In this document: in pieces, positions 10,441 to 50,059 of the stretch
How the letters are laid out: every line of letters starts with the position of its first letter
Numbering within the stretch: the stretch's first letter is position 1
Position numbers and translations under genes: made by a program
Assembly (NCBI GenBank): GCA_976551045.1
Contig: CDPCPM010000073.1
Span: forward strand, 27,218,001-27,282,000
Direction of reading: 5' to 3'
DNA length: 64,000 bases
Source of the DNA: Glaucostegus cemiculus
Taxonomy: Eukaryota
The notes under the pieces: generated by a model
Databases searched by the model: none
The model's input: the letters and a program-made list of their open reading frames with translations, nothing else
Told to the model about the DNA's origin: nothing

Positions 10441-11684
10441 TATTTGAGGATAGTTTAAGTGAGGGTTTGTCCAACATGGAGAGGGGTCGTTTCAAGGTTC
10501 CAAGTGCAACAAGTTGGGAAGAGGTGCAGATGGGGCAAACCACCTGCAAAGACGTTGGGTCAAATGGTTATGCTGTACACAGCGTGTTTAATTATTTTAT
10601 AATCCAATTACGTGTTATTAAGTATAGACAACCGCACCCTTGAAGAATACATGACTTTACTAACTCTTACTTTTTGAATTCGTGCACACATATTAGAGAA
10701 ATTCAGGATCACAAACAAACACCCATAATTTCCATCCAGTTTAAATCACTTTGCCACTATAATTACAGACAGAACATGATGATATCGTTATTACATGCAA
10801 TTCTGGCAGAAAACCACAGAATGATGTTTATTTCCAGGCACAACACCAACTCAAACATTGCAGAGATTTTCAGACTGTTGTTTCCCATCCAATGCTAAAG
10901 TGGGTAAGTGCATACCTCTCAGGCTAGTGCAATGTCACAAATCTGGTTCTCCCAACCGCATCCACAGTTCACGTAATGAAGAAATAAATGTATTGGTAAA
11001 GGATTTCAAGGATCAGTCATCACTGCCCTAACACCATGTGTGAGCAGTAAAACAGCAAAGCAGGCATGGTAAAAATACCCATCAGCATCTATGCTGCATG
11101 ACTGCAAAAATCTCAAGGTTTACTAATAACAGTTTGCTTATAGCACATTGGTGCGATTATAAAAAGCTCTGGCAATCTCAACTCCATCGATTGCATTTCC
11201 TGCTGATTTGCATTTTTGGTGAGGATTTGCCCAGGGTTCTTTTTAATCCCAATTCCAAAGAAAACACATTATGTAGTAAAACTCAAGGCCCTCACAGACT
11301 TTGTTTTCTGCTAATCATTTTTCCTGAAGCACTTGGCTGTGAAATGAAAGCTTTGATGCCCGTTACCTTTTGGAATACAGCCACTAGCTGTAATACTTTA
11401 GCTTGTTAGACAGGAGCTGGCAGAAATCCAAGCTCTTTCATCCCTCCCCTTGTTTGGGGGAATGTCAAGGTTTCAGGCTGTCATTAACCAAACACACCCA
11501 ACACTGTGGCTGTTCTGCAAGTTGCGATGTTCTGGATAATGCTGCATCACTTATCAGTTTGATTACTAGGTTGGGCACTCACCAACTCTTTCCCACTTTA
11601 TATCCCCACCAGTCCTTTCATTCTATTGAACAAAGGACTGATAAAATGCAGCTTTCCATTACATTTCTGTACAAGCTCCTCTCT

Positions 11685-12297
11685 AAGTTCCTGGGTGTCA
11701 ACATCTCCAAGGCTCTATCCTGGGCCCAACACATTGATGCAATCTTGAAGAAGTCATGCCAGCAGCTCTACTTCATTAAGAGTTTGAGGAGATTTGGTAT
11801 GTCACCAAAGACTCCTGCAAATTTCTATAGGCGTACGGTAGAGAGCATTCTGACTGGTTGCATCACAGCCTGGTATGGAGGCTCCAATGTGCAGGATCGC
11901 AAGAGACTGCAGAGGGTTGTAGACTCAGCCGGCTCCATCACGAGCACTGTGCTCCCCACCATCAAGGACATCTTCAACAGGCAGTGCCTCAAGGCGACAG
12001 CATCCGTTATTAAGGACCCTCACCATCCGGGACATTCCCTCTTCACGTTACTATCATCAGGGGAGGTGGTACAGGAGCCTGAAGACCCACACTGAATGAT
12101 TCAGCAACAGCTTCTTCCCCTCTACCATCAGAGGACTGAATGGTCCATGAATCCATGAACACAACCTCATTATTCCATTTTTTGTACTGTTTATTTTGTA
12201 ATTTATAGTCGTTTTATGTCTTTGCACTGTACTGCTACCACAAAACAACAAATTTCACAACATATAAGTCAGTGATAATAAATCAGATTCTGATTCT
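11685..12297 (+). mobile_element. Rex1/Babar-like LINE 3' fragment
   Basis: KFLGVNISKALSW..LRRFGMSPKT..ESILTGCITAWYG..IKDPHHPGH. Tail GATTCTGATTCT. Confidence 0.88.
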
Positions 12298-17717: not shown

Positions 17718-18153
17718 GTACGGTGGAGTGCATCCTGACTGGGTGCAACACAGCCTGGTAAGGAAGCTCCAATGTGCAGGATCGAAAGAGGCTGCAGAGG
17801 GCTGTAGACTCAGCCAACTCCATCACGGGCGCAACTCTCCCCGCCATCGAAGGCATCTTCAAGAAGGCAGCATCCATCATTAAGGACCCTCACCACCCGG
17901 AACATGCCCTCTTCTCATTACTATCATCAGGGAGGAGGTACAGGTGCCTGAAGACCCACACTCAACATTTTAAGAACAGCTTCTTCCCCTCTACCATCAG
18001 ATTTCTGAATGGCCCATGAACACTACTTCAGTATTTTTCTGTTGGACAACTTATTTATTTTTGTAACATAGTAATTTTTATGTCTTGCATTGTACTGCTG
18101 CCACAAAACAACAAATTTCACAACATGCACCAGTGATAATAAACCTGATTCTA
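17718..18153 (+). mobile_element. Rex1/Babar-like LINE 3' fragment
   Basis: QDRKRLQRAVDSANSITG..IIKDPHHPEHALFSLLSSGRRYR. Homologous to 11830-12297. Confidence 0.88.
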
Positions 18154-31712: not shown

Positions 31713-33229
31713 TAAAACCATCCCTCACAAACATTCTGCAGATATATCCTGGAAGAAGCTCAGCATCTAGAAATGAGAGGACATTTCATCCCTGCAAACA
31801 GCTACCACCACAAAAGTCAAAACTAGTAATGCTGCAAAAAAAAATCAGATCCCAGTCCCTTCCCAAGTGACAACCATCTCTTTGACATGCATCACTTCAC
31901 TATAGTTCAGTCAAAACCTTAGACTTTCCATCATTATGGTTGCGTGTTCAACACAACAACGGCAGCAGATCAGAAAACTCCGGCACCTGCCCCTCAAGCA
32001 AATAAAGGTAAAGTGCTTCTTCTTTGAGCTTGCAGCAGCTCCATAGTCTATGGGTAGCTGCATTATTTGTGCTATTAAAGCTGACTAGACAAGTCTGCTG
32101 CCTCCGGGCTACAGTGAATGGATTCAGTAGCACAAACGGTGCAAGCCAGCTCCAAGGAGCTGAGCTAACTGAAGAGATGGTGCAAGAAACTTGGGTCCAT
32201 TCACTTAGGACAGGAGGGGCAGAAAATTCAGCAGGTGTGGGTAAAGGATAACTAAATACTGCAACCAGTCACAATTTTGGCAATATGTTATCTTCTGCTG
32301 AATGGTGCATACAAATCTATAACAACTGAGAAAAGAAAAGAACCAGATAGAAGTTCTAAAGCATTTGTGCTTTTTTTTTATTTTGCACAGCGAGTTGTGA
32401 CAGGAAAAGCAGATTCGATAATTCCTTCATATAGGGTAATGAATCAATACCTGAAGGGGAGAGGTTTATAGTGCTAGGCGGAAAATCTAGGGGCATAGGA
32501 TCAATTAACAAACTCTTTCAAAGGGCCAGCACAGGGCCAATGGGTCAAATGGGTTCCTTCTTCGGTGTGTAATTCTAAGTATTTGACCCAATCATTAATT
32601 GAATGGTTTATTAATGAGACTTGAGTGACAAAGAGCTAGGTATACATTTCCACAGATTTGAATACGATCTCAAATATTCACTAAAATATGTATGATAAGA
32701 TCATATTTTCATCTCAGAACATTTTGTCAAATTATAAATGTTGTTTCCAAATGCAAGAAACTATTGACTAACAATATTTTAAGTAATATCTTTCAGACTG
32801 CTTTAAGGGTGCAGATTTCAAATCTTTACAGTATGTATCTTCTTGCATTTTAGAGTCAATCATCTAAGCTGCTTTGCAGTTTAATATGGCTTACTATGGA
32901 TTAGACCAGAAGTTAAGAAGATTTGCCTCCTAATACTTACCAGGATAAAAGATATTTCATCCTTATGCCTCCATGGCTGGCAATTTGTGGTTTTGTCTCT
33001 GCTTAAGTCAAAAGAAACAGAAGAATCTGTTGTTTTGGTCTTGCAGTGGACTTTGTAGTAGGGTTTTACCACCTTAAGTAAAATAATTAGTGTTTTGGCA
33101 GCTTTGAAAAATCTGGAAAGGGAAAAGAAACTGAAGACTAGGCTGATCCCGCTGAAGTAATGTTGGTAATTCTGTTCACCATAATTCAGCACGACCCACT
33201 GTCACCGGAGAGGATTCAGTGAAGACCAG

Positions 33230-34058
33230 TGTTACGAAACCAGCAACAAAAGAAGCACACCAAGTCATACTTCAGTGTTAAAACTACTTTATTAATAACT
33301 ACATCCGATAATATGCAAAATAAGAATAAAAAGTTAGTATATTAGTACACAATAAAATGTTAAAATCTTAAACTATAACCCCAAAACTACTCGTCGTGTG
33401 TGTGCGGCAAGTTCCTAAACTCCCAGTCCAGGAATTAGTTCTTAAAGTTCAGTTCAGTAAGCCGTAAGATGACACGAATAAAGGCTTCTTCACAAGCACT
33501 GTCCACCGAAGACAAAATATAGATATAGAGAGAGATTAGAGAGGAATCACGAAATCCGAATGTTCCACTCGAAACTCAAACGACACTTCAGGGCTTACTC
33601 GGTTGTGACTTTCTCACCCTGAAAACTCCTTAATCGTGACTGTCCATGCAAATACCTGTGTTCTTCTACAGGTTAGCAGCAAAGTGAATTCCGTCACTTT
33701 GTTCCACAGTATCTGCCACTCTGAAGAGCATCCAAAATGTGGTTGTTCATGCAAACACCTGTGTCCTTCTACAGGTTACCAACAAAGTGAACTCCACTGG
33801 ACTACTCCAGAAATCCATCCACGGATTTTAGTGACAAACACAGTTACTGTCCTTCATCCAACGACAGAAACAAAACAAGCTGCCTTCTCTCCTTCTTCTC
33901 TCTTTCTTTCTGTCTGTCTGTCTCTCTCTCTCTTATCTTTTTCTTTCTTGCAATGATGTCACCACGTTAGTCTTATCTTCTGCTGACGTAATACGTTGCA
34001 CACACACACAATGTCCCATCTAAAAGGGATATTTGCCTAAGTAAGCTACTTCGTAACA
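33230..34058 (-). repeat. 3' LTR
   Basis: 829 bp at a constant offset of 5827 from the 5' LTR. Identical 106-aa incidental ORFs at 33636 and 39463. Preceded by a purine-rich tract on the minus strand. Confidence 0.96.
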
Positions 34059-34068
34059 CCTCCCACAC
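34059..34068 (-). other. Polypurine tract (short)
   Basis: Minus strand GTGTGGGAGG directly abutting the TG of the 3' LTR. Confidence 0.7.
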
Positions 34069-34183
34069 AAACAAAATTTTTTTTCAAAAAAAATTATTAT
34101 CCGCGCATATAGTTAGTGATGTTAGTAATTATCATCCTACATAATAACAGTATATCAGATTAGTAACGATATAGGTCTTTCGT

Positions 34184-37100
34184 TTAACATCGAGAAAGGC
34201 AATCAGCAATTACATTATCTTTGCCTTTAACGTGAATTATCGTGAGATCAAATTCTTGTAGAATTAAACTCCAATTTAACAGTCGTCTGTTTTTGTTTTT
34301 CACTCGGCTCAGAAACACCAACGGATTATGATCTGTGTATATAATCAATGGTTTCTGAGTTGGGCAAACATACACATTGAAATGTTGTAAGGCTAAAACA
34401 AGTGAAAGCAATTCTTTCTCTATCGTAGAGTAATTTTTCTGATGCTCATTAAACTTCTTTGAAAAGTAAGCTACAGGGTGGTCAATATCATCAAGGTCAC
34501 TCTTCTGCAACAACACAGCTCCTGCAGCTTCATCACTGGCATCTACTGCTAATGAAAATGGCTTTTCAAAGTCAGGTGACTTGAGCACAGGATAGTAACA
34601 CAAAATGGTTTTTAGCTTCTCAAATGCTTCTTGACAAGAATCTGTCCAAACAAATTTCACTCCTTTCTTCAGAAGATTAGTTAAGGGAAGAGCAATATCA
34701 GCAAAATTTTTACAAAATTTCCGATAATATCCAACCATTCCCAGAAATCTTCTAACAGTCCTGATGCCTGTAGGAACAGGGAATTCAGATATCACTTGAA
34801 CTTTTGCCTGAACAGGTGCTAACTTGCCTTGACCTACAACATAACCAAGATATGTCACAGTGGCATGGCCAAATTCACTTTTAGCCAAATTGACTGTAAG
34901 GTTAGCTTTGGAAAGTCTTTCAAACAACCTTTCTAATGCAATGATGTGATCCTCCCACGTATCATTCCCTGTCACTAGATCATCAATGTAGGCATCTGTA
35001 TGTTTTAACCCATGAATCACTGAATTGATCATTCTTTGAAATGTTGCTGGGGCATTTTTCATTCCAAATGGCAAAACATTGTATTCATACAATCCAGAAG
35101 GGGTCGCAAAGGCAGAAATCTCCCTTCCTCTCTCTGTTAATGGAACACACCAGTACCCTTTTAGTAAATCAATCTTTGTAAGAAATTTGGCCGTCCCCAC
35201 TCTATCTATGCAATCATCTACCCTTGGAATGGGGTATGCATCCGACTTTGTCACAGCATTCACTTTTCTGTAATCCGTACAAAATCTAATGGTCCCATCA
35301 GGTTTTGGCACAATAACACAGGGCGAACTCCAGTTTGAACTAGAACGTCTGATGATGTCATTTTCTAACATATACTCAATTTCCTGATCAACAAGTTTAC
35401 TCTTATCCACATTCATTCGATATGGGTGTTGTTTGATTGGTTTTGCATCCTCAACGTCAACATCATGGCTAATTATTGACGTTTTGTTTGGCACATTGGG
35501 AAAAAGATTTTTAAATTTTAAAAGTAACTGTTTCATCTGCTGTTTCTGTGAATCTTGTAAATGGTCCAACTTTGTCTCAAGGTTCTCCAAGATATTTTGG
35601 TTTTCTAGCCTTGCTGAAACAATATTTGGTCTACATTGGCCTTCCTCATTGTCAACAACAGATGTCTCAGGATCTTTCACCTCATTCACTGTGGCCACCA
35701 CTGTATTCCTCTCATAATACGGTTTCAACATATTTACGTGACAGAGTTGGGTTTTCTTGCGTCTCTCTGGGGTTTTTAGCAAATAGTTGAGGTCGCCTAT
35801 CTTAGATTCGATAATGAATGGTCCTTCAAACCGCGACTGCAATGGATTTGTCTGACTAGGGAAAAATGCGAGCACTTTTTGACCCACTGCGTATGTCCTT
35901 GGCTGAGCACGTTTGTCATAATATTCCTTCATCCTAATCTGGCTTGTTTTTAAATTCTCTTTCGCTAGCTCACAGACTTTCTTCAGCCGAGTTTTAAACT
36001 TTTGGACATAATCCAATAGACTCAACTGCACTTCTTCATTAACCCATTGTTCTCTTAACAACTCCAAAGGTCCTCTCACCTGATGTCCAAATACAAGTTC
36101 AAATGGACTAAATCCTAATGACTCCTGAATTGCCTCTCGAATGGCAAACAACAGTAAATGTATTCCTTCATCCCAATCCTTCGTGTTTTCAAAGCAATAA
36201 GTCTTCATCATATTTTTGAGAGTAGAATGAAATCTCTCCAATGCTCCTTGAGATTCTGGGTGATATGCAGATGACACAATCTGCTTTGCTCCCAGCTCAT
36301 GGATCAGTTGCCGAAACAAATTGGACATAAAATTACTGCCTTGATCAGATTGGATTTCTTTTGGCAAACCAACAAACGTAAAGAATTTTAAAAGAGCTTT
36401 TGACACTGTCTTGGCCTTAATATTTCTAAGTGGGATTGCCTCTGGAAATCTAGAAGTTGTACACATGATGGTTAACAAATATTGATTCCCAGCTTTAGAC
36501 TTTGGCAATGGTCCAACACAATCCACAATCACCTTTGAAAAGGGTTCACCAAAAGCAGGAATGGGTTTCAGAGGAGCCACAGGGGGTTTTTGATTTGGTT
36601 TACCTACCATCTGACATGTATGACAGGTTCGACAAAACATCACCACATCCTTTCTCAAACCAGGCCAATAGAATTGTTTCAAGATCTTCCCCACAGTTTT
36701 ATTCACCCCTAAATGACCACCTAAAGGCATGCTATGGGCCAGGTTTAAAATCTCATCCCGATAAACTTTAGGAACTACTACCTGATGAATAACTTCCCAC
36801 TCCTCATTCACAGTGACATGAGGCGGTCTCCATTTCCTCATTAACAATCCATCTTTGACATAATATCCAACTGGCACTTTTTCAATTTCCTCACTTGAGA
36901 GTGCTTTTTCCTTCAGTTCAGTCAGTTCAAGGTCTTTATTCTGTTCCACCATAAATTCTTTCCTTGACAAAGACAAATCTTTGTATTCAGGCTCACTACC
37001 AAAACTTTGATCCTCCAATGAAGACAAAAAAGTGTCAGACAAATCATCATAACTTTCCTCTTGTTTAGGACTATCACAAGGAACAATTTCAGACTGTGTA

Positions 37101-38884
37101 GAATTCTCGGCCTTAGCTAATTCTTTAGCTTTAGCTCGGGTTACTGCACAAGATGGATAAACGTCTGCGTCATCCTCAGATTCAGTAAAGCTTGGTTTAG
37201 TTGTTAACTGTACCACAGAAACAAATTCTTCACCTGCAAGGTCATTTCCCAATAACAAAGAAACACCCTCCACTGGTAAACTTGGTCGTATCCCTATCTC
37301 AACAGGTCCTTCCACAAACTTTGATTTTAGAAACACCTTGTGCAAAGGCACGAACATGGTATCACCTGTAACACCTCGCACTAGGTTTACCTCACCAGTT
37401 TCAGTTTCCTTACCAAAATTTAAAACACTGTCCAGCAAGAGAGATTGGGAAGCTCCAGTATCTCTAAGGATTTTCACTGGTACCTGGGGTGACCCATCCT
37501 TCAGTGAAACAAAACCTTCTGATACATATGAACGGAATTCCTCCCTCACCTCATCCAGCTTTTCAGTCTTCATCTCTAGCAAGGACTGATCTTTCACAAC
37601 CTCCCCTAAACCTCTTCTATTTCCGGGTTTAATGACTTGACAACAGGCAGTTGGCACAGCTCCCTTTTCTTGCTTTTTCTTCAAAACAGAACAGTCAAAT
37701 TTCATATGGCCAGGCTTCTTACAGTAATAACAAAGACGCTCAGCAGGTTTCTCCAGCACTGGCTTCTTGTCATCCTTCCCTTTCGGATTATCTCCCAATT
37801 TAATCTCTGGTTTACCTGGATTGTCTCTGTAACTCCTTTGAAAGGTTTTAGGTTGTCCCCATCTGTATTTATGGGTTAAAGCATAATCATCTGCCAACCT
37901 AGCAGTTTCTTGTAAAGTGTCCACATTCTTTTCATTTAGGTATGCAGCTATTTCAGCTGGTACACATCTTTTAAAGTCTTCTATTAAAACTAATTCTGTC
38001 AATTTGTTATAATCATCAACTACATCTTTCGCCATACACCATCGTTCAAAACATATTCTCTTTCCATTGGCAAACTCCATGTATGTTTGATCTGAAGTTT
38101 TCTTCAAGTCTCTAAACTTTTGTCTGTACGCTTCTGGTACCAACTCATACACTTTCAAGATTGCTTGTTTTACTTTTTCATAATCAGCTGCCTCCTCCAC
38201 AGACAAAGCAGAATAAGCTTTTTGAGCTTTGCCTTTAATCACACTCTGTAACATAAGAGCCCATCTCCTTTTTGGCCAACTTAAACTCGTAGCAACCTTT
38301 TCAAAATGTTGGAAATACTGTTCAACCTGATCTTCATCAAAAGGAGGGACTAATCTAACCTCCCTACTGGCTGAAAACTCATCATCAGAATCAGAATCTG
38401 AACTCTTTCTCTGCATTCTTAACTGATGTTTCCTTTGTTCCTCCCTCTCTTTATTTTCCAGCTCCATCCTCCTCAAATTCAATCGGTCCTTTTCTAACTC
38501 AGCATCTATCTTTCTTTGTTCTGCTTCAGCCTCAAATTTCAATCGGTCCCTTTCTCTTTCAGATTCCAGTCTCCTTTGCTCTCTTTCAGATTCTAGCTCT
38601 AATTTCTTTTGTTCTATTCTTGCTTGTTCCTTTTCAGCCTCTATCTTTGCTAACTGAATTTGGGCATCAGAAATCACTTGTTCACTGCCAGGAAATTGTT
38701 TTACTACTCCCTCTTCAAACACTTGCATCTTTACATAATGACCAGCTATTATTTTCTGGATATCTGCTTTTTTCATAGATTGTGTTACTGTCGTAAGTTT
38801 TAGCTCTGTAGCAAGAATTAATAATTCAGACTTCTTCATTCTCTGCAATCCACATGGTGTGGGTTTTTTCATAAACGCATCCAT
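34184..38884 (-). CDS. Gag-Pol polyprotein, 1566 aa from first ATG: coiled coil, capsid/SCAN-like, CCHC knuckle, protease, integrase, RT, RNase H
   Basis: Uninterrupted ORF. CYYCKKPGHMKFDC (~37691-37732). LRDTGASQS protease (~37450). HHCC, VDCVGP, SDQGSNF, ERFH and GPF integrase motifs (~35720-36900). RT with YIDD at 34979-34990. RNase H VDAS..EKELL..TDH..ADCLSR at the C-terminus. The ORF-track start at 38911 is a TTG; first ATG is 38884. Confidence 0.96.
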   Translation of the reverse strand: MDAFMKKPTPCGLQRMKKSELLILATELKLTTVTQSMKKADIQKIIAGHYVKMQVFEEGVVKQFPGSEQVISDAQIQLAKIEAEKEQARIEQKKLELESEREQRRLESERERDRLKFEAEAEQRKIDAELEKDRLNLRRMELENKEREEQRKHQLRMQRKSSDSDSDDEFSASREVRLVPPFDEDQVEQYFQHFEKVATSLSWPKRRWALMLQSVIKGKAQKAYSALSVEEAADYEKVKQAILKVYELVPEAYRQKFRDLKKTSDQTYMEFANGKRICFERWCMAKDVVDDYNKLTELVLIEDFKRCVPAEIAAYLNEKNVDTLQETARLADDYALTHKYRWGQPKTFQRSYRDNPGKPEIKLGDNPKGKDDKKPVLEKPAERLCYYCKKPGHMKFDCSVLKKKQEKGAVPTACCQVIKPGNRRGLGEVVKDQSLLEMKTEKLDEVREEFRSYVSEGFVSLKDGSPQVPVKILRDTGASQSLLLDSVLNFGKETETGEVNLVRGVTGDTMFVPLHKVFLKSKFVEGPVEIGIRPSLPVEGVSLLLGNDLAGEEFVSVVQLTTKPSFTESEDDADVYPSCAVTRAKAKELAKAENSTQSEIVPCDSPKQEESYDDLSDTFLSSLEDQSFGSEPEYKDLSLSRKEFMVEQNKDLELTELKEKALSSEEIEKVPVGYYVKDGLLMRKWRPPHVTVNEEWEVIHQVVVPKVYRDEILNLAHSMPLGGHLGVNKTVGKILKQFYWPGLRKDVVMFCRTCHTCQMVGKPNQKPPVAPLKPIPAFGEPFSKVIVDCVGPLPKSKAGNQYLLTIMCTTSRFPEAIPLRNIKAKTVSKALLKFFTFVGLPKEIQSDQGSNFMSNLFRQLIHELGAKQIVSSAYHPESQGALERFHSTLKNMMKTYCFENTKDWDEGIHLLLFAIREAIQESLGFSPFELVFGHQVRGPLELLREQWVNEEVQLSLLDYVQKFKTRLKKVCELAKENLKTSQIRMKEYYDKRAQPRTYAVGQKVLAFFPSQTNPLQSRFEGPFIIESKIGDLNYLLKTPERRKKTQLCHVNMLKPYYERNTVVATVNEVKDPETSVVDNEEGQCRPNIVSARLENQNILENLETKLDHLQDSQKQQMKQLLLKFKNLFPNVPNKTSIISHDVDVEDAKPIKQHPYRMNVDKSKLVDQEIEYMLENDIIRRSSSNWSSPCVIVPKPDGTIRFCTDYRKVNAVTKSDAYPIPRVDDCIDRVGTAKFLTKIDLLKGYWCVPLTERGREISAFATPSGLYEYNVLPFGMKNAPATFQRMINSVIHGLKHTDAYIDDLVTGNDTWEDHIIALERLFERLSKANLTVNLAKSEFGHATVTYLGYVVGQGKLAPVQAKVQVISEFPVPTGIRTVRRFLGMVGYYRKFCKNFADIALPLTNLLKKGVKFVWTDSCQEAFEKLKTILCYYPVLKSPDFEKPFSLAVDASDEAAGAVLLQKSDLDDIDHPVAYFSKKFNEHQKNYSTIEKELLSLVLALQHFNVYVCPTQKPLIIYTDHNPLVFLSRVKNKNRRLLNWSLILQEFDLTIIHVKGKDNVIADCLSRC

Positions 38885-39034
38885 TGCTACTGGTTTCCAC
38901 ACACACGCCAATTAAGAAAATGTATTGGACCAACCCCAATGTCCAAATTCAGACCTCCAGCACCAGTCTTAAGTTTGACTGCAAGCCAAATCTTTGGACT
39001 GGATCCCAGAACGACACTCATTAATCTTGGGAAG

Positions 39035-39052
39035 ATCCCGGACGAGCCCCCA
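39035..39052 (-). other. Primer-binding site for tRNA-Pro
   Basis: Minus strand reads TGGGGGCTCGTCCGGGAT, the 18-nt complement of the tRNA-Pro 3' end (same sequence as the MLV PBS). Confidence 0.95.
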
Positions 39053-39056
39053 ATTT

Positions 39057-39885
39057 TGTTACGAAACCAGCAACAAAAGAAGCACACCAAGTCATACTTC
39101 AGTGTTAAAACTACTTTATTAATAACTACATCCGATAATATGCAAAATAAGAATAAAAAGTTAGTATATTAGTACACAATAAAATGTTAAAATCTTAAAC
39201 TATAACCCCAAAACTACTCGTCGTGTGTGTGCGGCAAGTTCCTAAACTCCCAGTCCAGGAATTAGTTCTTAAAGTTCAGTTCAGTAAGCCGTAAGATGAC
39301 ACGAATAAAGGCTTCTTCACAAGCACTGTCCACCGAAGACAAAATATAGATATAGAGAGAGATTAGAGAGGAATCACGAAATCCGAATGTTCCACTCGAA
39401 ACTCAAACGACACTTCAGGGCTTACTCGGTTGTGACTTTCTCACCCTGAAAACTCCTTAATCGTGACTGTCCATGCAAATACCTGTGTTCTTCTACAGGT
39501 TAGCAGCAAAGTGAATTCCGTCACTTTGTTCCACAGTATCTGCCACTCTGAAGAGCATCCAAAATGTGGTTGTTCATGCAAACACCTGTGTCCTTCTACA
39601 GGTTACCAACAAAGTGAACTCCACTGGACTACTCCAGAAATCCATCCACGGATTTTAGTGACAAACACAGTTACTGTCCTTCATCCAACGACAGAAACAA
39701 AACAAGCTGCCTTCTCTCCTTCTTCTCTCTTTCTTTCTGTCTGTCTGTCTCTCTCTCTCTTATCTTTTTCTTTCTTGCAATGATGTCACCACGTTAGTCT
39801 TATCTTCTGCTGACGTAATACGTTGCACACACACACAATGTCCCATCTAAAAGGGATATTTGCCTAAGTAAGCTACTTCGTAACA
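39057..39885 (-). repeat. 5' LTR
   Basis: 829 bp, TG...CA ends with 9-bp terminal inverted repeat, followed after 4 nt by the PBS on the minus strand. Confidence 0.96.
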
Positions 39886-40094
39886 CCAGTGACGGCAGAG
39901 ACAGAGAAAGCTAATGGAAAATGGAAATAATGCTTTAGAGGAAAAAGACCTCAGTTTAGATCTTCTTCAGATATTCAACAATCTAAATGACACAGGTGAT
40001 TTGAGACAAAATAATATATCTGATGTAATCACAAATTCTATAAAAAGGGACATGAACCAAAGCTCAAATGTGAAGGTAAATAAATTATATTTAA

Positions 40095-40810
40095 ATATCT
40101 TAAATGCTGCTTGTTATATACATTAGTGACTTAAATGTGAATGTATGATTAGTAAGTTTGCAGATGGCACAAAAATTGAGTGTTGTTGATAGTGAGGAGG
40201 GTGGTCTTAGGCTGGCTGCAGGATGATATTGGCCGGTAAACTGGGAGGGAAATGGCAGATGGAATTTAAACCTGATAAGTGTGAGTTGATGAATTTTGGG
40301 AGGACTTGGAAAAAGTATTGAGGAACAGAGACGATGTGTAGAGGTCCACAAATCTCTAAAGGTGGCAGCACAGGTAGAGACAGTGGTGAAGGCAGTATAC
40401 AAGATGCTTGTCATCTTCAGCTAAGGCATAGAGTACAAGAACAGGGAAGTCTTGATACAACTTTCTGAAACGTTGGTTAGGTCATAGCTGGAATATTGTG
40501 TGCAGTTCTGGCAGCCACACTATAGGAAGAACATGATTGCACTGGAAGGGTGCATTGGAGATTCACCTGGATGTTGCTTAGGATGGAATTGGGAGGAGAA
40601 ACTGCATAGGCTGGGAGGGGAACTGATAGAGGTGTAAAAAAAAAATTGCAAGAGGAGATGGTAATAAACTAGTCACTATGGCAAACGTGTCTATGACCAA
40701 AGGGCATAAGTTTAGAAGGTGAAGAGTAAGAGGTTCAGAGGGAATCTGAGGAAGATTTTTTGCATCCAGATGATGGTTGCATTCTGGAACACAACCACCA
40801 TGGTGGAAAC
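40095..40810 (+). mobile_element. CR1 LINE fragment, degenerate
   Basis: Remnants ISKFAD-TK, WQMEFKPDKCE and LEYCVQFW. Confidence 0.8.
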
Positions 40811-43690: not shown

Positions 43691-44302
43691 CTTTTAACAT
43701 ACTTTTTTTTAAATAATCTTTTAACATACATTCCCATAACTTATACAGTAAAGCATTTGTTATACTATGCTTCAGGATGTTACTCTCCATGCGAGGTCAA
43801 AAGAACAGGAAAGTAAAATTGCATCTAGTGAAGTAGATTCCAGTGAATATTATCCAGTAAAATTGCCGGTTATTAAAACATACTTTTACAATCCTACTCT
43901 GTGGTAAACGTGGTTTGAGTGTATTTTGTTGTTAGATTGGAAGCCAGTAGTACTGTATGAAATACCAGAACGATTACACTGCTGACAACTTTTACTCGGT
44001 ATTTGCATTACACGGGGACAATGTCGACTGCCAATTCTACAATAGATGCTGGTTTGCATCTGCCGCATCAACAAAATCCATTTGTGAAGGATTTAACCTG
44101 CTGAGTGTGGTTTTTAACAGCTCCAAATATCCTTTAAACTTACCTTGGCCGTAACTGCTGATCTCAGACCTGTCTCACTCCCTGAAACGAACCAAAGGAT
44201 CATCCCACAATGATGATCTACAGGTGCCATCTCCAAGCACCTCTCAACGTACGGAGAACACAGCTTTGCCCCTCCAACAAGGACCAAAGCCATCTTCATT
44301 TA

Positions 44303-44470
44303 AGAGAAACAAAGGACTGCAGACGCTGGAATCTAGATATATATAAAAAAACAACAAAATGCTGGAGGAACTCAGCAGGTCAGGCAGCATCCGTGGAGAA
44401 AAGCAGACGGTCAACGTTTCGGGTCAGTCCTGAAGAAGGGACCTGCCCCGAAACGTTGACCGTCTGCCTT
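44303..44470. mobile_element. Penelope-like terminal fragment with inverted junction and minimal hammerhead motif
   Basis: Minus-strand family copy at 44303-44423. Perfect 21-bp inverted repeat at 44403-44423 and 44447-44467. CTGAAGA..GAAACGTT core at 44430-44457. Confidence 0.7.
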
Positions 44471-46852
44471 ATGACTCAATTTCACTGCACCATTCATAAT
44501 CGCCTCCATTTCCGTCACCAACTTTTGATCCATCTTCATCCACTTCCTGGCAATATCTACCCCTATCCCCATCTCATTCGTCCTGCACATCACGGGCACA
44601 ACTCCCTCCAGCTGTCCCATCACAATGATCCCGTTTCATTTATTCTTCTGATTCAAGCACATGTCACTGGATCCACTGCCGACTTTCTCTGCTCCAGGAT
44701 CTTCCTGTTTTACCTTTCATGACTAAAATCCCAGAACCCTATCTCCACCCCTGCCTTCCTCGTCCTCCCGCACTTCCGTCCCGGGACGAGGCCATCCTCC
44801 GCTCTGGCGCCGCGGGTCCACCCTCTCCGCGTCTGCCGGACTGAGACCCCCGGATTCCCCCTGATCCCCCAGAGAGACCACACCGGCTGGTTCTCTCCGA
44901 GCGCCGCACACACCCGCCGAGTGTTTGCACCTTTGAGACAAGCGCCCCGCCGCCCTCTCTCTCCCTTGGAGAACAAACTGTTGCTTGTTGCTGGTGTGGC
45001 CCCGCTCCGCACCAGCCCGGGGACCCTGTGGCCGGGGTCAGGCGGCCGACGACTCAAGGTAGAAACACCACAGCTTCCTCGCTGGGTTTCAACGCGCCGC
45101 CAGGCTGCCCTTGCGAGGCTACAGCCAGTTCTTATTGCTCTTATATTTCTATTTGTTGCATTTGATACCCTCATACTACCCAACTTTTCAGTTCTGGGTC
45201 GGGTGAGCAGCGCGCTCTTGTTGTAGGAAAACATCCTCACAGACGAGCAGCTCCCCGTAGCAGGATCGGTGGGAATCTGCCTGTTCAACTGCAGCGCGGA
45301 ACCACTGTCACAGACAACCTTCCGACAGCGTCCATCATCGCGCCCACGGACAGAGTAACCCTGTTGATGTTACGTTGCAAGCGCCCCGACAATCTCACAA
45401 ATATATCTCACTCACAGAGAAAAGAAAACTAGACTCCGGTCTCATCCGCAAGTCACGGGGGATTCGTATTTCTTGGGTTTCTTCCGACGTTCCCCTCTCC
45501 CGCGGGGAAGTTACAACGCTTGTTTGGACCCGATGCCGGTATTCTACCGGTATCAGGAGAGCGAGCCGCTAAAGCCTCGCAGTTCCTCTGGTAGGAACTA
45601 CCACTGCCACCCGCTGCGCCGAACCAGGAGTGGAGGAACAGGCAGGGCAGGATTCCTAATCAACCTTGGAAGCTACAATACAGAAGTGGGGGCCACAGTC
45701 CGCGGACCACCGCCAGCATCCCCATCCCAACGGCGGCACCCTCAAGAGGCAAACAACCGAGGTTTCGTCTCGCTATCCCGGAACAAACAGGTCCATTATT
45801 CGGTGCAACTTTTAAGGAAAGTCAATTTCGAGAAATAAAAAAAGGGATCCGGGGGTCGGATCGAACTCGAGCTGGAATTGGACATTTCCAACCGGCTCAG
45901 CCATGGGTTTGCCGCTTGGCATTTAACGCCACGTTTCGCAACTACTTCCCAAACAAGCAAGGCTGTGGCGATTGTACCACAGTAAGATGTACGAATAGCA
46001 CAAGCAGCGCGCAGAGTACATCACACACCTATGCATTTCTGCTTCCCGGATAATCAAACACGAATCGTTCCTACAATTTCTGGCCTTACGATCTCATGTG
46101 ACATTAAATGTGAACAAGCACGCTATATCCATCTGCTGAAGCACACCAGAGCATTCAAGATCCTCAGCAACCATTGCGCTGTGCGGTTCCAGCGCAATAC
46201 ATTCCAAACACAATCTACGTGCTTTTAAATTGCGATGTTACATCCTGGGTCGACTGCCTCAGTGAAACACACTGGCAATGCAAAATCGTAAATCAGAAAC
46301 ATATCGATTCTAAATAGAGAAAACATTAAATCATGAGACGTGACTGCCAAAAAAAACCCCGACACCCTCGCTGAATCTCAATGAATGAGACCGATCTACA
46401 TTGCTTTCAGTGGACTGAATTTCGTGGGGCAAGTGGGAAGACGGAAGCGGCGCTTTCACAAAGATGTTTAAGAGTCGGGGGGTCAGGGCTGATCACTCAC
46501 AGCCGCATTATTTTTTGCTGCTGACGGCGGCGGCTCGCAATTGCTGGCTTTTGTTGCTGCCCGCGCCGACTGGGTGCACTTTCTCCAAGGGGAAAGGGGA
46601 GAGGGATGGGGGGCAGAAAGTACACCACCGAACGGGCAGGGGATGGGAAGCACTGAAGCCTCGGATACCCACATCAGGACCTGACAGTAACTGGGCTGGC
46701 GCATCACACCAGACGCGATCTGCTAACTTCGATGCAGCCAGGGCTGCGGAGTTGTGGAGGTGCAGTGCTACCCCCAGCCCCTTTCCCCCTGAACTCATTC
46801 ATTCACGATGGACTTGGGAAGTTGTGCTGGAGAACGCCGGGCGCGCACATAC

Positions 46853-47062
46853 CAGTCCCTGGCCAGGGAAGGGGAACCCTCTGCCGGGTGCTTCTCGGAC
46901 CTGCCGGGCTCTCTGCTTCTTGTCCTCGCCGCCTTTCTCCTCGCCGTCCAGGCTGCTAAAATTCCACACCAGCAGAGTCTGCACGAACAGCACGGTGAGC
47001 GCCACGATCACGGCGGATTTCGAGCGCCGCGCCAACTTTCGCCCGCACGCCGCGGCCACCAT
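46853..47062 (-). CDS. XYLT1: Xylosyltransferase 1, first coding exon (70 codons: cytoplasmic tail, type II TM helix, start of stem)
   Basis: Translation [39 protein letters not shown] matches the recalled vertebrate XYLT1 N-terminus ([39 protein letters not shown]). ATG at 47062-47060 in context AAAATGG. Phase-0 donor CTG|GTATGT at 46853/46852. Lies in a CpG island. Confidence 0.93.
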
Positions 47063-47160
47063 TTTCACTGTGAAGCCGCTATGCCGGCGGACTCCAGGTT
47101 AGCCGAACCCCAGCCGCCGCCGCCTCCAACCCCCCCCCCCCCATCCAACCCTGGACCCGG

Positions 47161-47457
47161 CCCCGCCCCCTCCCCGGCTCCTGCTCCCGCTCCAGCCAAT
47201 CGCCGCCGCCCTCTCCTCCCCGCTCCGCCAGCGGCCGGCCAATGGTGCCCGCTGCTCCCTCGGCGTCGGCCAATCGGCGGGCGGCTCAACCGAAACATCC
47301 GAGAACCAATTGGGATCAAGTCCTCTCAGCCAATCGGTGGCAGGAAGCTGCGGCTCTCCGACCCACCGTTTGGGCCCGAAGCCAATCAGGAGGCAGGTAG
47401 GGCTGTCGATCAAGGTCTTCGCTGCTGGGCGACAGCCTGCATGTATTGTGACGTCAC
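47161..47457 (-). promoter_or_regulatory. XYLT1 proximal promoter: GC box, six CCAAT boxes and a palindromic CRE
   Basis: CCCCGCCCCC at 47161-47170. CCAAT at 47196, 47239, 47270, 47306, 47330 and 47382. GTGACGTCAC at 47448-47457. All lie 100-400 nt upstream of the ATG. Confidence 0.75.
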
Positions 47458-50059
47458 CGTGGGAAAGTCTCTGTGTGTGAGAGAGCATTGTTGCTGTGCG
47501 TTTAGCGGCATTGGCGGCGGGGTGCGGAGGGGCCACGGGTGCCTGGTGTGCATCGTCTTCCCCGAGTTTAGAGCCACTAGGGGAGGGTACCCGGTGCCTC
47601 ACAGGGCTTGACCTCAACATCCACACACGACGAGCTGCAACTCGTTAGCAGAATTCCTCCCACTACCACATGCAGCGAGCAACAGCAGCGCTTCCTGCCT
47701 AGAAACCTTCCCGCTCCCATGGCCGTACCAGCCCCTGCGCAAAACCTTTGCAAAGTACATTTGTGTGTGTCTTTTTAAAAAACAAAAGCTGCATCTCATT
47801 AAAGGCCACCCTTGGTGCAACAGACCCCTCTAAAACAGATGGGAGAGGCGCTGTGCAGAAGATCCAATTGGTTCTTCAACCGCTCTCCAGAAATTCCTCC
47901 TGACTATTTTAATCATCGTGTTATCCTTTTTACGGGCCATTCAACACTAGGTAGTAAACAGGTGGCAAAGATGGCAAAACGCTAGATTTTTTTTTAAATG
48001 ATTGCAGATTCGGGAGCAAAATCGAATGATTCGGAATTCAATGTTGGAAGATTAGCGTATCTAAAAGAAATTCTTTTTTAGACAACTTAGCATTTCAGTG
48101 ACTGCAAAGCACCTTCAGAAGTCCTGAGATTGTGGAAGGCCCCATACAAATTCAAGTCTTACAGCTTCGCTGCCAATACTATGTGACTCATGGGGTGCTT
48201 ATTTTCAAAGGATGTGTCTGCAGTTTCAACACTTGCGAGGTCCGAATTTCCAATCGGTTTCGCTCCAAGTGAAAGCGCCGAGTTTCGAAAACTCACACTG
48301 AACTGGGGAAATAAGAGATTCGCAATCTTACTTCAGGCTGGAGATGGTTATTCCCTGAGCAACCCCCCCGGAATATTTTCTGTTCTATCGACTACATCGC
48401 AGCTGCGGTGTTTTTTAACCTTCGTCGGATCGCTCCAACTCTGGAGCACCACACAGCACAAGGTGGTTGGAAATTAATTCCGACGTAAGGCACCAATAAT
48501 CACACATAATTAACCTTTTCCGCTGTCCACTCTTCGAGTTTTCACACTTTGTTAAGCAGTTCATTAATATCAACAGTTCCAGGTCAAACGGCTTTTGTTT
48601 CGCAAAGCTTAATGTCTTTATGGTTGAAGGCTTATTTTCAATTGACCTGAAGTGTATTTTCTTTCAGCCTTTAACACAAAGCGTCTAAACTATCAGTTGA
48701 TGATATTGCTGCCGAATCAAATCGCTTTGCTGTCAAGTGGACTGAATTCGTAAGGCTCTCCACTTGCAACAGCTGTTCCCGGGCTAAAACACCATACACA
48801 AAATCATATCGCCATCAACTGTTCAATAGCACAGCTGCTCGAATATACGTGACTAAGATATGCAGTTTAAATGGGCCACGACTCTCTCATGAATATGTAA
48901 TATACACTCAAACAATCAAGCAGCTATCATTTCTATTTGAAAAACAAATTCGGGTGAGCTCCATTAGTTCCATCGATGTAAATGAGAAATTACGATTTAT
49001 TGATTAGTTTTCATATTTGAAACTTTTTTGACCTGTTTAACTAGTGTGCTAACGAACGACTGAGACTTCCGAATATTGACAGTCACGTGTATAGACGGTG
49101 CATTTTGAAATAGGGAATTATCCCATCTATCCTCTCCGACCTGCCTGAACAGCCAGATGCTCCAAAAACAGCCATGGTTACAGGTGCCGCACGCACTATG
49201 AATGAAATGGAGCAGCGGAAAATAAATATTCAGTAGCCTTTAGCTTGTTAAGTCCCTGAGCTACTTAAGTACCCCAAAGATTGGGAAACCAGATTCGCAA
49301 TGTCCAAGTCCGCAAACCCCCTGGCTTTGCACTCTAATTCAATCCAACTCTTTAGCAAATATGGTGAGGTTGTAACAACCTGTTCTACTCAAATAACAGG
49401 AAACACTAGCGCAATCTGGCATCGTTACTTGTCAGTAATTTGGATGAATACTCGAAGGAGGGAAATTGCCAAGCGTTGGGGGAGGAGCAAGTGATTAGAA
49501 ATCCTGTGACAGCTTCTAAACGGAGCAGGAACAGGCAACCAATGATTCTTCGAAGTATTTTTTTTAAGAAAGATTTTTGTTTGGTTTCTACTCGACTGTG
49601 TCATAATTATCAAGTGTTGCAATAACGGTTTTTGCAGTCTTACAATATCATGCCACTTATATAATGCAGAAGAACAAAAGTTTGTTGAAAGGGGAAACAC
49701 CAAGGTAAAATGTGATTATTCTGATTTATACGTTATTGCTAAATTAAAATGGAATTGGCTAAAACCAATGAAAGGTTAAACACAAAGTGTTTCAGATAAA
49801 TAGCCAACCTCAGTGAGAAAGAACATAAAAGTTCTGTTCTATATCCAGGTGAATAGCTTGAGAGAGGAGAAGTCATTTTGTTGTGCATAGGAAGGGAGCT
49901 AAACTAGAAAATGAAGTATGTATTTATCTTGGGTTCACCTAAAACTCCTACTGGAAGTATCTTAACTCTTGCCCAGTACCTTTCACCTGTCACTGAAGAG
50001 CTCACTGATCTGCAGGAGGATTCTGATCCAGCCACACTGAAGTCCAGGCATTTAAATTC

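Follow-up and report, generated by a model that had tools for sequence, protein, structure and literature searches.

A young Gmr1-like retrotransposon in Glaucostegus cemiculus and a predicted splice that would remove pol

How a single-ORF Gypsy element obtains enough capsid is a question of importance, and it is raised by a locus in the 64,000-nt stretch of Glaucostegus cemiculus DNA analysed here (the window). On the minus strand, which carries all features of the element described below, a frame free of stop codons extends from 38911 to 34184. Its first ATG is at 38884, and the resulting single Gag-Pol ORF (34184..38884) encodes 1566 aa. A frameshift between gag and pol is unnecessary because this frame is open throughout; slippery-type heptamers occur at 15 sites in the ORF. 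An earlier note on this DNA, made from the letters alone, had concluded that the Gag:Pol ratio must then be set by splicing, alternative polyadenylation or turnover. As far as it concerns the open frame this conclusion is sound, and among the three routes splicing has gained specific, although indirect, support from gene models of a sawfish.

Structure and coding capacity of the element

The ORF encodes, in this order, a SCAN-type capsid, a zinc knuckle, protease (PR), integrase (IN), reverse transcriptase (RT) and RNase H (RH). The capsid was located at 37868..38377, and its C-terminal half (38137-37868, aa 250-339) matches the Pfam family SCAN (PF02023) above the cut-off (E 8.8e-12). The CCHC zinc knuckle of the nucleocapsid (37688..37735) matches Pfam zf-CCHC at aa 384-399. 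The aspartic protease (37205..37540) was not called by the Pfam search of the ORF; it was placed by conservation and by its DTG motif at nt 37462 (aa 475), which is invariant or almost so in 32 aligned relatives. The integrase (35717..36775) has an HHCC motif, a DD35E core and a GPF/SH3 module. It matches Integrase_H2C2 (aa 704-760), rve (aa 781-876) and SH3_Tf2-1/Integrase_p58_C (aa 1009-1056), carries the GPF motif at aa 1021 and is similar to foamy-virus integrase (E 6.6e-29). Pfam and motifs define the RT (34838..35437; RVT_1, aa 1192-1349), and the RH (34187..34648) was matched by RT_RNaseH at aa 1413-1545. By motif reading, none of the four enzymes lacks a catalytic residue; those present include D788, D847 and E883 of the integrase with the 35-residue spacing, D1239 and YIDD of the RT, and the D-E-D-D residues of the RH.

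The order PR-IN-RT-RH within one Gag-Pol frame, as read in the earlier note, was thus confirmed by Pfam and motifs, and the profile search it had proposed for rve, RVT_1 and RT_RNaseH matched all three. The motifs RFCTDYRKVN (35287), LPFGMKNAPATFQ (35074), YIDD (34990) and TDHNPL (34336), together with GPF, are present where it had placed them. The integrase, which it had set at ~36900-35720, indeed lies between protease and RT. The span given in the earlier note, 34184..37530, holds only pol; the whole element occupies 33230..39885.

This LTR retrotransposon is 6656 bp long, ends with TG...CA and is bordered by a 4-bp target-site duplication, CTGG, at 39886..39889 (5') and 33226..33229 (3'). 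The 5' LTR (39057..39885) and the 3' LTR (33230..34058) are 829 bp each; the 5' LTR contains one AATAAA (39120) and an internal repeat with a spacing of 103 bp. The repeat was detected as 831 nt, corresponding to the LTR and two flanking G residues, which are common to the target duplication and the polypurine tract. A primer-binding site, which we take to be of the tRNA-Pro type, is located 4 nt inside the 5' LTR (39035..39052), and a short polypurine tract (34059..34064) directly adjoins the 3' LTR. All hallmarks of an LTR retrotransposon are therefore present: TG...CA LTRs, target duplication, primer-binding site and polypurine tract. An endogenous retrovirus or errantivirus was rejected, because the ORF stop is separated from the 3' LTR by only 125 nt, which leaves the element without env. 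The ORF list of the window has no additional long ORF inside the element, the 64-kb window holds no further copies of its LTR, and the region 33000-40200 gave no match to Rfam families at E 0.5.

The two LTRs differ at 0 of 829 sites, which sets the upper 95% bound of their divergence at ~0.36%. Because of these zero differences the insertion is very recent; an assembly that had merged both LTRs would look identical. The identical LTRs mean that the family was mobile very recently, in a slowly evolving genome. In each LTR (39463-39622 and 33636-33795) a 57-nt repeat is present in two copies, which are 103 nt apart and 86% alike. Both LTRs also contain GA-rich microsatellite stretches, and their CpG observed/expected ratio is 0.67 vs 0.31 in the flanks.

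At the N-terminus of Gag a three-helix domain (38699..38884) was predicted, which weakly resembles the SAP, LEM and Rho-N folds. A model of Gag aa 1-70 computed from the single sequence has three helices and a pLDDT of 70.8. The top structural match of the N-terminal model was the Rho N-terminal domain (Z 6.0, rmsd 2.6, 48 aligned residues), and EndoVII, SAP and LEM were also among the top matches of aa 1-62 (Z 5.0-6.0), all of them below the caution level of Z 8. Foldseek returned no match for the Gag N-terminus at E 0.001, its non-significant list being headed by the same families, and Pfam returned none for aa 1-62. In the ESM Atlas, aa 1-70 led to three unnamed clusters with scores of 0.76-0.82, which serve as a lead only. 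The region is retained in most of the 32 aligned relatives. Such a domain could serve to anchor the particle, or the RNA in it, on chromatin. It is followed by a charged, probably coiled-coil linker (38390..38698) of varying length among relatives. A 60-nt tandem repeat (38475-38589) codes for part of this linker, the length of which differs in the sawfish copies.

Outside the element, a GC-rich island (44000-48000, 52-59% GC) lies ~4 kb beyond the 5' LTR. It is probably a host promoter or first exon; seven ORFs scanned in this interval had no Pfam match. Two related repeat fragments, 83-86% alike, were found at 11394-12263 and 17718-18126. The first of them matches Pfam ALKBH8_N (E 5e-6) and is presumably the 3' end of a LINE.

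Assignment to the Gmr1-like clade

The Gmr1-like clade, named for the cod element Gmr1 (Butler 2001; Goodwin and Poulter 2002), is defined by an integrase upstream of the RT. It is reported in an annelid and in crustaceans (PMC8220671, PMC3587641, PMC2774666), is counted among the clades that occur in several phyla (PMC8556966), has ~200 copies in Xenopus (PMC4131045) and appears in a flatworm as a Gmr1/Osvaldo group (PMC12801592). According to PMC11117352, all of its Gmr elements fuse gag and pol in one ORF of 1506-1634 aa. The SCAN domain has been traced to the Gmr1 capsid (PMC4592553, PMC8321522, bioRxiv 2025.03.03.638093), and the last of these sources gives the Gmr1-like layout as a SCAN-type capsid followed by PR, IN and RT-RH (layouts in its fig. 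S1). Thus the order of domains, which headed the earlier note, and the fused ORF are published hallmarks of Gmr1-like elements and already known biology; the order PR-IN-RT-RH has been known since 2001-2002, is common and comes as no surprise.

The phylogenetic placement used the 150 best matches of RT-RH among 1.84 billion representatives. These contained 186 RT-RH units, of which 43 had an integrase upstream, 85 downstream, 51 none near and 7 on both sides. The last two groups and one unit that was too short were omitted from the tree, and seven named relatives were added, giving 135 rows. We found that 49 of the 51 integrase-upstream rows, including the query, form one group (support 0.96) with none of the 84 downstream rows inside; the two outlying rows are gene models that fuse two elements. 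In an IQ-TREE analysis of a 68-row subset, the integrase-upstream group received an SH-aLRT value of 100. All SCAN-bearing rows (24/24) fall inside the query's clade. The outgroups of this tree are unnamed, and its rows include neither cod Gmr1, or any other named Gmr1 element, nor copia. The RT phylogeny that the earlier note had proposed as a check places RT-RH inside an integrase-upstream clade.

The element combines the PR-IN-RT-RH order, an RT-RH of the Ty3/Gypsy type, a GPF integrase, a SCAN-like capsid and a fused gag-pol. Because domain order, capsid, single ORF and tree position agree, it is almost certainly a Gmr1-like Ty3/Gypsy LTR retrotransposon, young and intact-looking, in line with the lineage proposed by the earlier note. 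The affinity to Gypsy follows from the best match of RT-RH among solved structures, which is Ty3 Gag-Pol (E 1.3e-127). Ty1/Copia was rejected despite the integrase upstream of the RT: RVT_1 and RT_RNaseH match, RVT_2 does not at E 0.1, and Ty3 is the nearest solved relative, the tree having no copia row to add. The view that the lineage is confined to deuterostomes has to be given up, given the reports from crustaceans and an annelid and the relatives in molluscs and a sponge found here.

Of 8000 scored candidates, 2129 matched with an E value of 1e-20 or lower. The top one is a protein of the sawfish Pristis pectinata (85%), a match that by itself would make a cartilaginous fish the probable host; the next ones reach 60-63%, and named relatives from oyster, scallop, sea cucumbers, sea urchin and sponge are at ~50%. 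SCAN, PR, IN, RT and RH are joined in one polypeptide in 120/120 best homologues. A single ORF of at least 1400 aa was present in 27 of 78 related metagenome loci, and 11 of these 27 loci with an intact ORF have a similar primer site after CA. In viral contigs one related locus (40%) was found. Several Gmr1-like lineages coexist in rays: Hypanus and Mobula have more distant families, ~45-60% in Gag (P0218-P0245, P0486-P0492), and the RT-RH of the window sits among invertebrate elements in the tree. Three intact long-ORF relatives (L007, L008 and L009) follow one another on a single metagenome contig of 35654 bp and have common 3' ends, resembling a tandem array. Two full Gmr1-like polyproteins (P0036 and P0094) bear bacterial names at NCBI; most likely they are animal DNA in genome bins.

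A predicted splice from the end of Gag to the end of RT

According to standard biology, a full-length LTR-to-LTR RNA of the element would be translated to one Gag-PR-IN-RT-RH polyprotein and cut by the protease. The same RNA would also be packaged; a tRNA would prime its reverse transcription, and integration of the product would create the 4-bp duplication. We propose that the excess of Gag comes from alternative splicing, in which a donor at the Gag/protease border would be joined to an acceptor near the end of the RT. Such a splice would excise ~2.7-2.8 kb, comprising PR, IN and almost the entire RT, and shift the frame, so that the spliced RNA would give a Gag-only protein with a short tail, as in Drosophila copia. 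To this reading we assign a probability of roughly 0.6. The analysis shows the anatomy, domain order and clade of the element, the presence of the sites and the corresponding junctions in sawfish gene models; that the copy in the window is itself spliced, and that splicing sets the Gag:Pol ratio, we infer.

Scanned for splice sites on its own, the window ORF yielded 9 donors from 273 GT and 6 acceptors from 404 AG. The candidate donor GAG|GTGAGG (37544..37552, intron start 37549) is in phase 0 at the Gag/PR border and ranks second of the 9 with a score of 9.7. When the window ORF was shuffled synonymously, 117 of 1000 shuffles had a donor of this strength in the Gag/PR linker. Two acceptors are predicted to be its partners. 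Acceptor 1 (34833..34850) lies below the acceptor cut-off of the window scan; with it the exon would resume at 34833 after an intron of 2716 nt, adding four codons before a stop. Acceptor 2 (34767..34784) is one of the 6 called, and with it the exon would resume at 34767 after an intron of 2782 nt, adding 28 codons in the +1 frame before a stop. The donor and acceptor 2 were called from the window before the sawfish tails were examined.

Two sawfish RefSeq gene models, P0216 (445 aa) and P0217 (507 aa), correspond to Gag up to the donor residue of the window and exit the frame there. The accessions of the sawfish loci concerned are XP_051889476.1 and XP_051866842.1. Their tails match the +1 frame of the end of the window RT (E 9.6e-21 and 4.9e-9, respectively). 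P0216 resumes at the 34767 site, and P0217 at an AG 66 nt upstream, at 34833, the position of acceptor 1. The two models are on different contigs, which differ in length. A further isoform, P0485 (X1; P0217 is X2 of the same name), agrees fully with P0217 for 481 aa before it continues into the protease. Thus the skipped DNA is present at this locus, at least in part, and alternative splicing is favoured over a deletion in the DNA. NCBI builds alternative isoforms from transcript alignments. The locus itself is decayed, with a stop in the protease and a shifted stretch in Gag.

The junction is found in 2 of 18 sawfish models (2 of 16 loci) of the closest family, 15 of the 17 main-cluster members being listed. 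The sawfish junctions come from automatic gene models of another species, and such models favour strong GT-AG sites, so that their agreement with the site lists of the window is not independent. Of 149 short capsid-bearing proteins, 5 carried a tail that aligned far downstream; the tails of the two sawfish proteins were the only ones out of frame. No such junction was seen in other species in this set, which consists mostly of proteins from gene calling that takes no account of introns. With the junction region of P0216 as query, P0216 and P0217 were the only ones returned among 66 candidates.

The sites were also compared across the clade, using 20 non-redundant ORFs (the window and 19 of the 27 intact loci) and synonymous shuffles. 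No conserved donor, acceptor or poly(A) hotspot exceeded the shuffles, and no region was enriched for donors. The donor column is not conserved in the 19 distant relatives, and AG is present at the column of acceptor 1 in 3/19 and at that of acceptor 2 in 3/19. If the splice is real, it would seem to be specific to this family. Strong donors look depleted in RT-RH, where the higher cut-off gave them in 1 of 20 elements as compared to a shuffle mean of 6.8; this was one of 18 region-by-cut-off tests.

The lack of conservation also bears on a different explanation, in which a single polyprotein is processed, Pol is turned over faster than Gag, and the splice is rare cryptic splicing. As the splice sites are not conserved across the clade, most Gmr1-like elements need another route or other sites, and the junction is absent from 16 of the 18 sawfish models. 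Data on the single-ORF Ty3/Gypsy element Tf1, with a Gag:IN ratio of 26:1 reached by degradation, and on Ty5 (~5:1) give a precedent (PMC7175516). However, two loci use one donor, which sits precisely where Gag ends and before the first protease block that is conserved, both acceptors give a prompt stop, and turnover can coexist with splicing. We consider faster Pol turnover possible but unlikely as the explanation. It is improbable that the sawfish junctions are annotation artefacts, or internally deleted non-autonomous copies aligned as introns, with the sites in the window due to chance. Gene models in decayed repeats are unreliable, AG|GT-like text flanks both sides of such junctions, so that a deletion can mimic an intron, and by shuffling the probability of so strong a donor in the linker is ~0.12. 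Against this, the read-through isoform P0485 has protease sequence behind the donor, two independent deletions would need one left end and AG at both right ends, and no such internal deletion was found in the 78 related loci.

Among the routes named, premature polyadenylation within the ORF, a route taken by Ty1/Copia elements of plants, is the one we hold to be very improbable. The ORF has six A(A/T)TAAA hexamers, one of them at 36940 between PR and IN, and splicing with early termination is the strategy described for Arabidopsis (PMC5580714). But no hexamer is conserved across the 20 elements beyond shuffles, and RNA ending in this way would, unless spliced, have no stop codon. Moreover, the 120 short Gag-bearing proteins have scattered ends, with no common end point found among them.

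Alternative splicing of pol thus remains our preferred reading, and it names two exact junctions, which are checkable in RNA. We give even odds to a broader reading, namely that this ray/sawfish Gmr1 family has converged on copia twice (integrase before RT, and Gag from a pol-less spliced RNA), that its spliced RNA could seed Gag-only copies, and that its Gag may carry the SAP/LEM-like tether. The seeding of Gag-only genomic copies is conceivable because the spliced RNA would keep both LTR ends, the primer site and the polypurine tract. If true, such copies would be a ready route for handing the capsid (SCAN) exon to host genes, and the element would be a vertebrate Ty3/Gypsy retrotransposon with a copia-type Gag-only mRNA. 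In titles and abstract openings of the open-access literature, we found no published Gmr1 gag splice or account of its Gag:Pol ratio. In the same literature, neither a pol-removing splice nor an N-terminal SAP/LEM-like domain was found to be described for the Gmr1 clade.

Comparison with known systems

With the Gmr1-like clade the element shares the integrase upstream of the RT, the SCAN-type capsid and the one fused ORF. The pufferfish Gmr elements listed in Table 2 of PMC11117352 are 6058-6465 bp long with ORFs of 1506-1634 aa, as compared to 6656 bp and 1566 aa here, and the LTR of 829 bp is longer than their LTRs of 337-518 bp. The Pristis pectinata family (RefSeq LOC127579869, LOC127581629, LOC127580286 and others), annotated only as uncharacterized proteins, has the same layout, with 83-85% aa identity over the polyprotein and 93% in RT-RH. 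However, the N-terminal Gag and the linker diverge, which makes it a sister family and not the same copy.

The fission yeast element Tf1 also has Gypsy enzymes in one ORF without a frameshift, but the usual order RT-RH-IN, and its ratio is set by Pol degradation (PMC7175516). Drosophila copia has a single ORF with the integrase before the RT and splices out 2950 nt of pol (PMC3735527, PMC5580714), similar to the predicted 2.72-2.78 kb here. It belongs to another superfamily, whereas the RT-RH of the present element has Ty3 as its nearest solved relative and the integrase has a GPF module. The likeness to copia would therefore be convergent. If real, the splice would clearly exemplify convergence with copia. 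It would then also be relevant to the origin of the SCAN domain of amniote zinc-finger genes from the capsid of this lineage. That SCAN derives from the C-terminal domain of a Gmr1-like capsid, the part that corresponds to Pfam SCAN at aa 250-339 of the present ORF, but here it is still located within a retrotransposon Gag, without KRAB or a C2H2 array.
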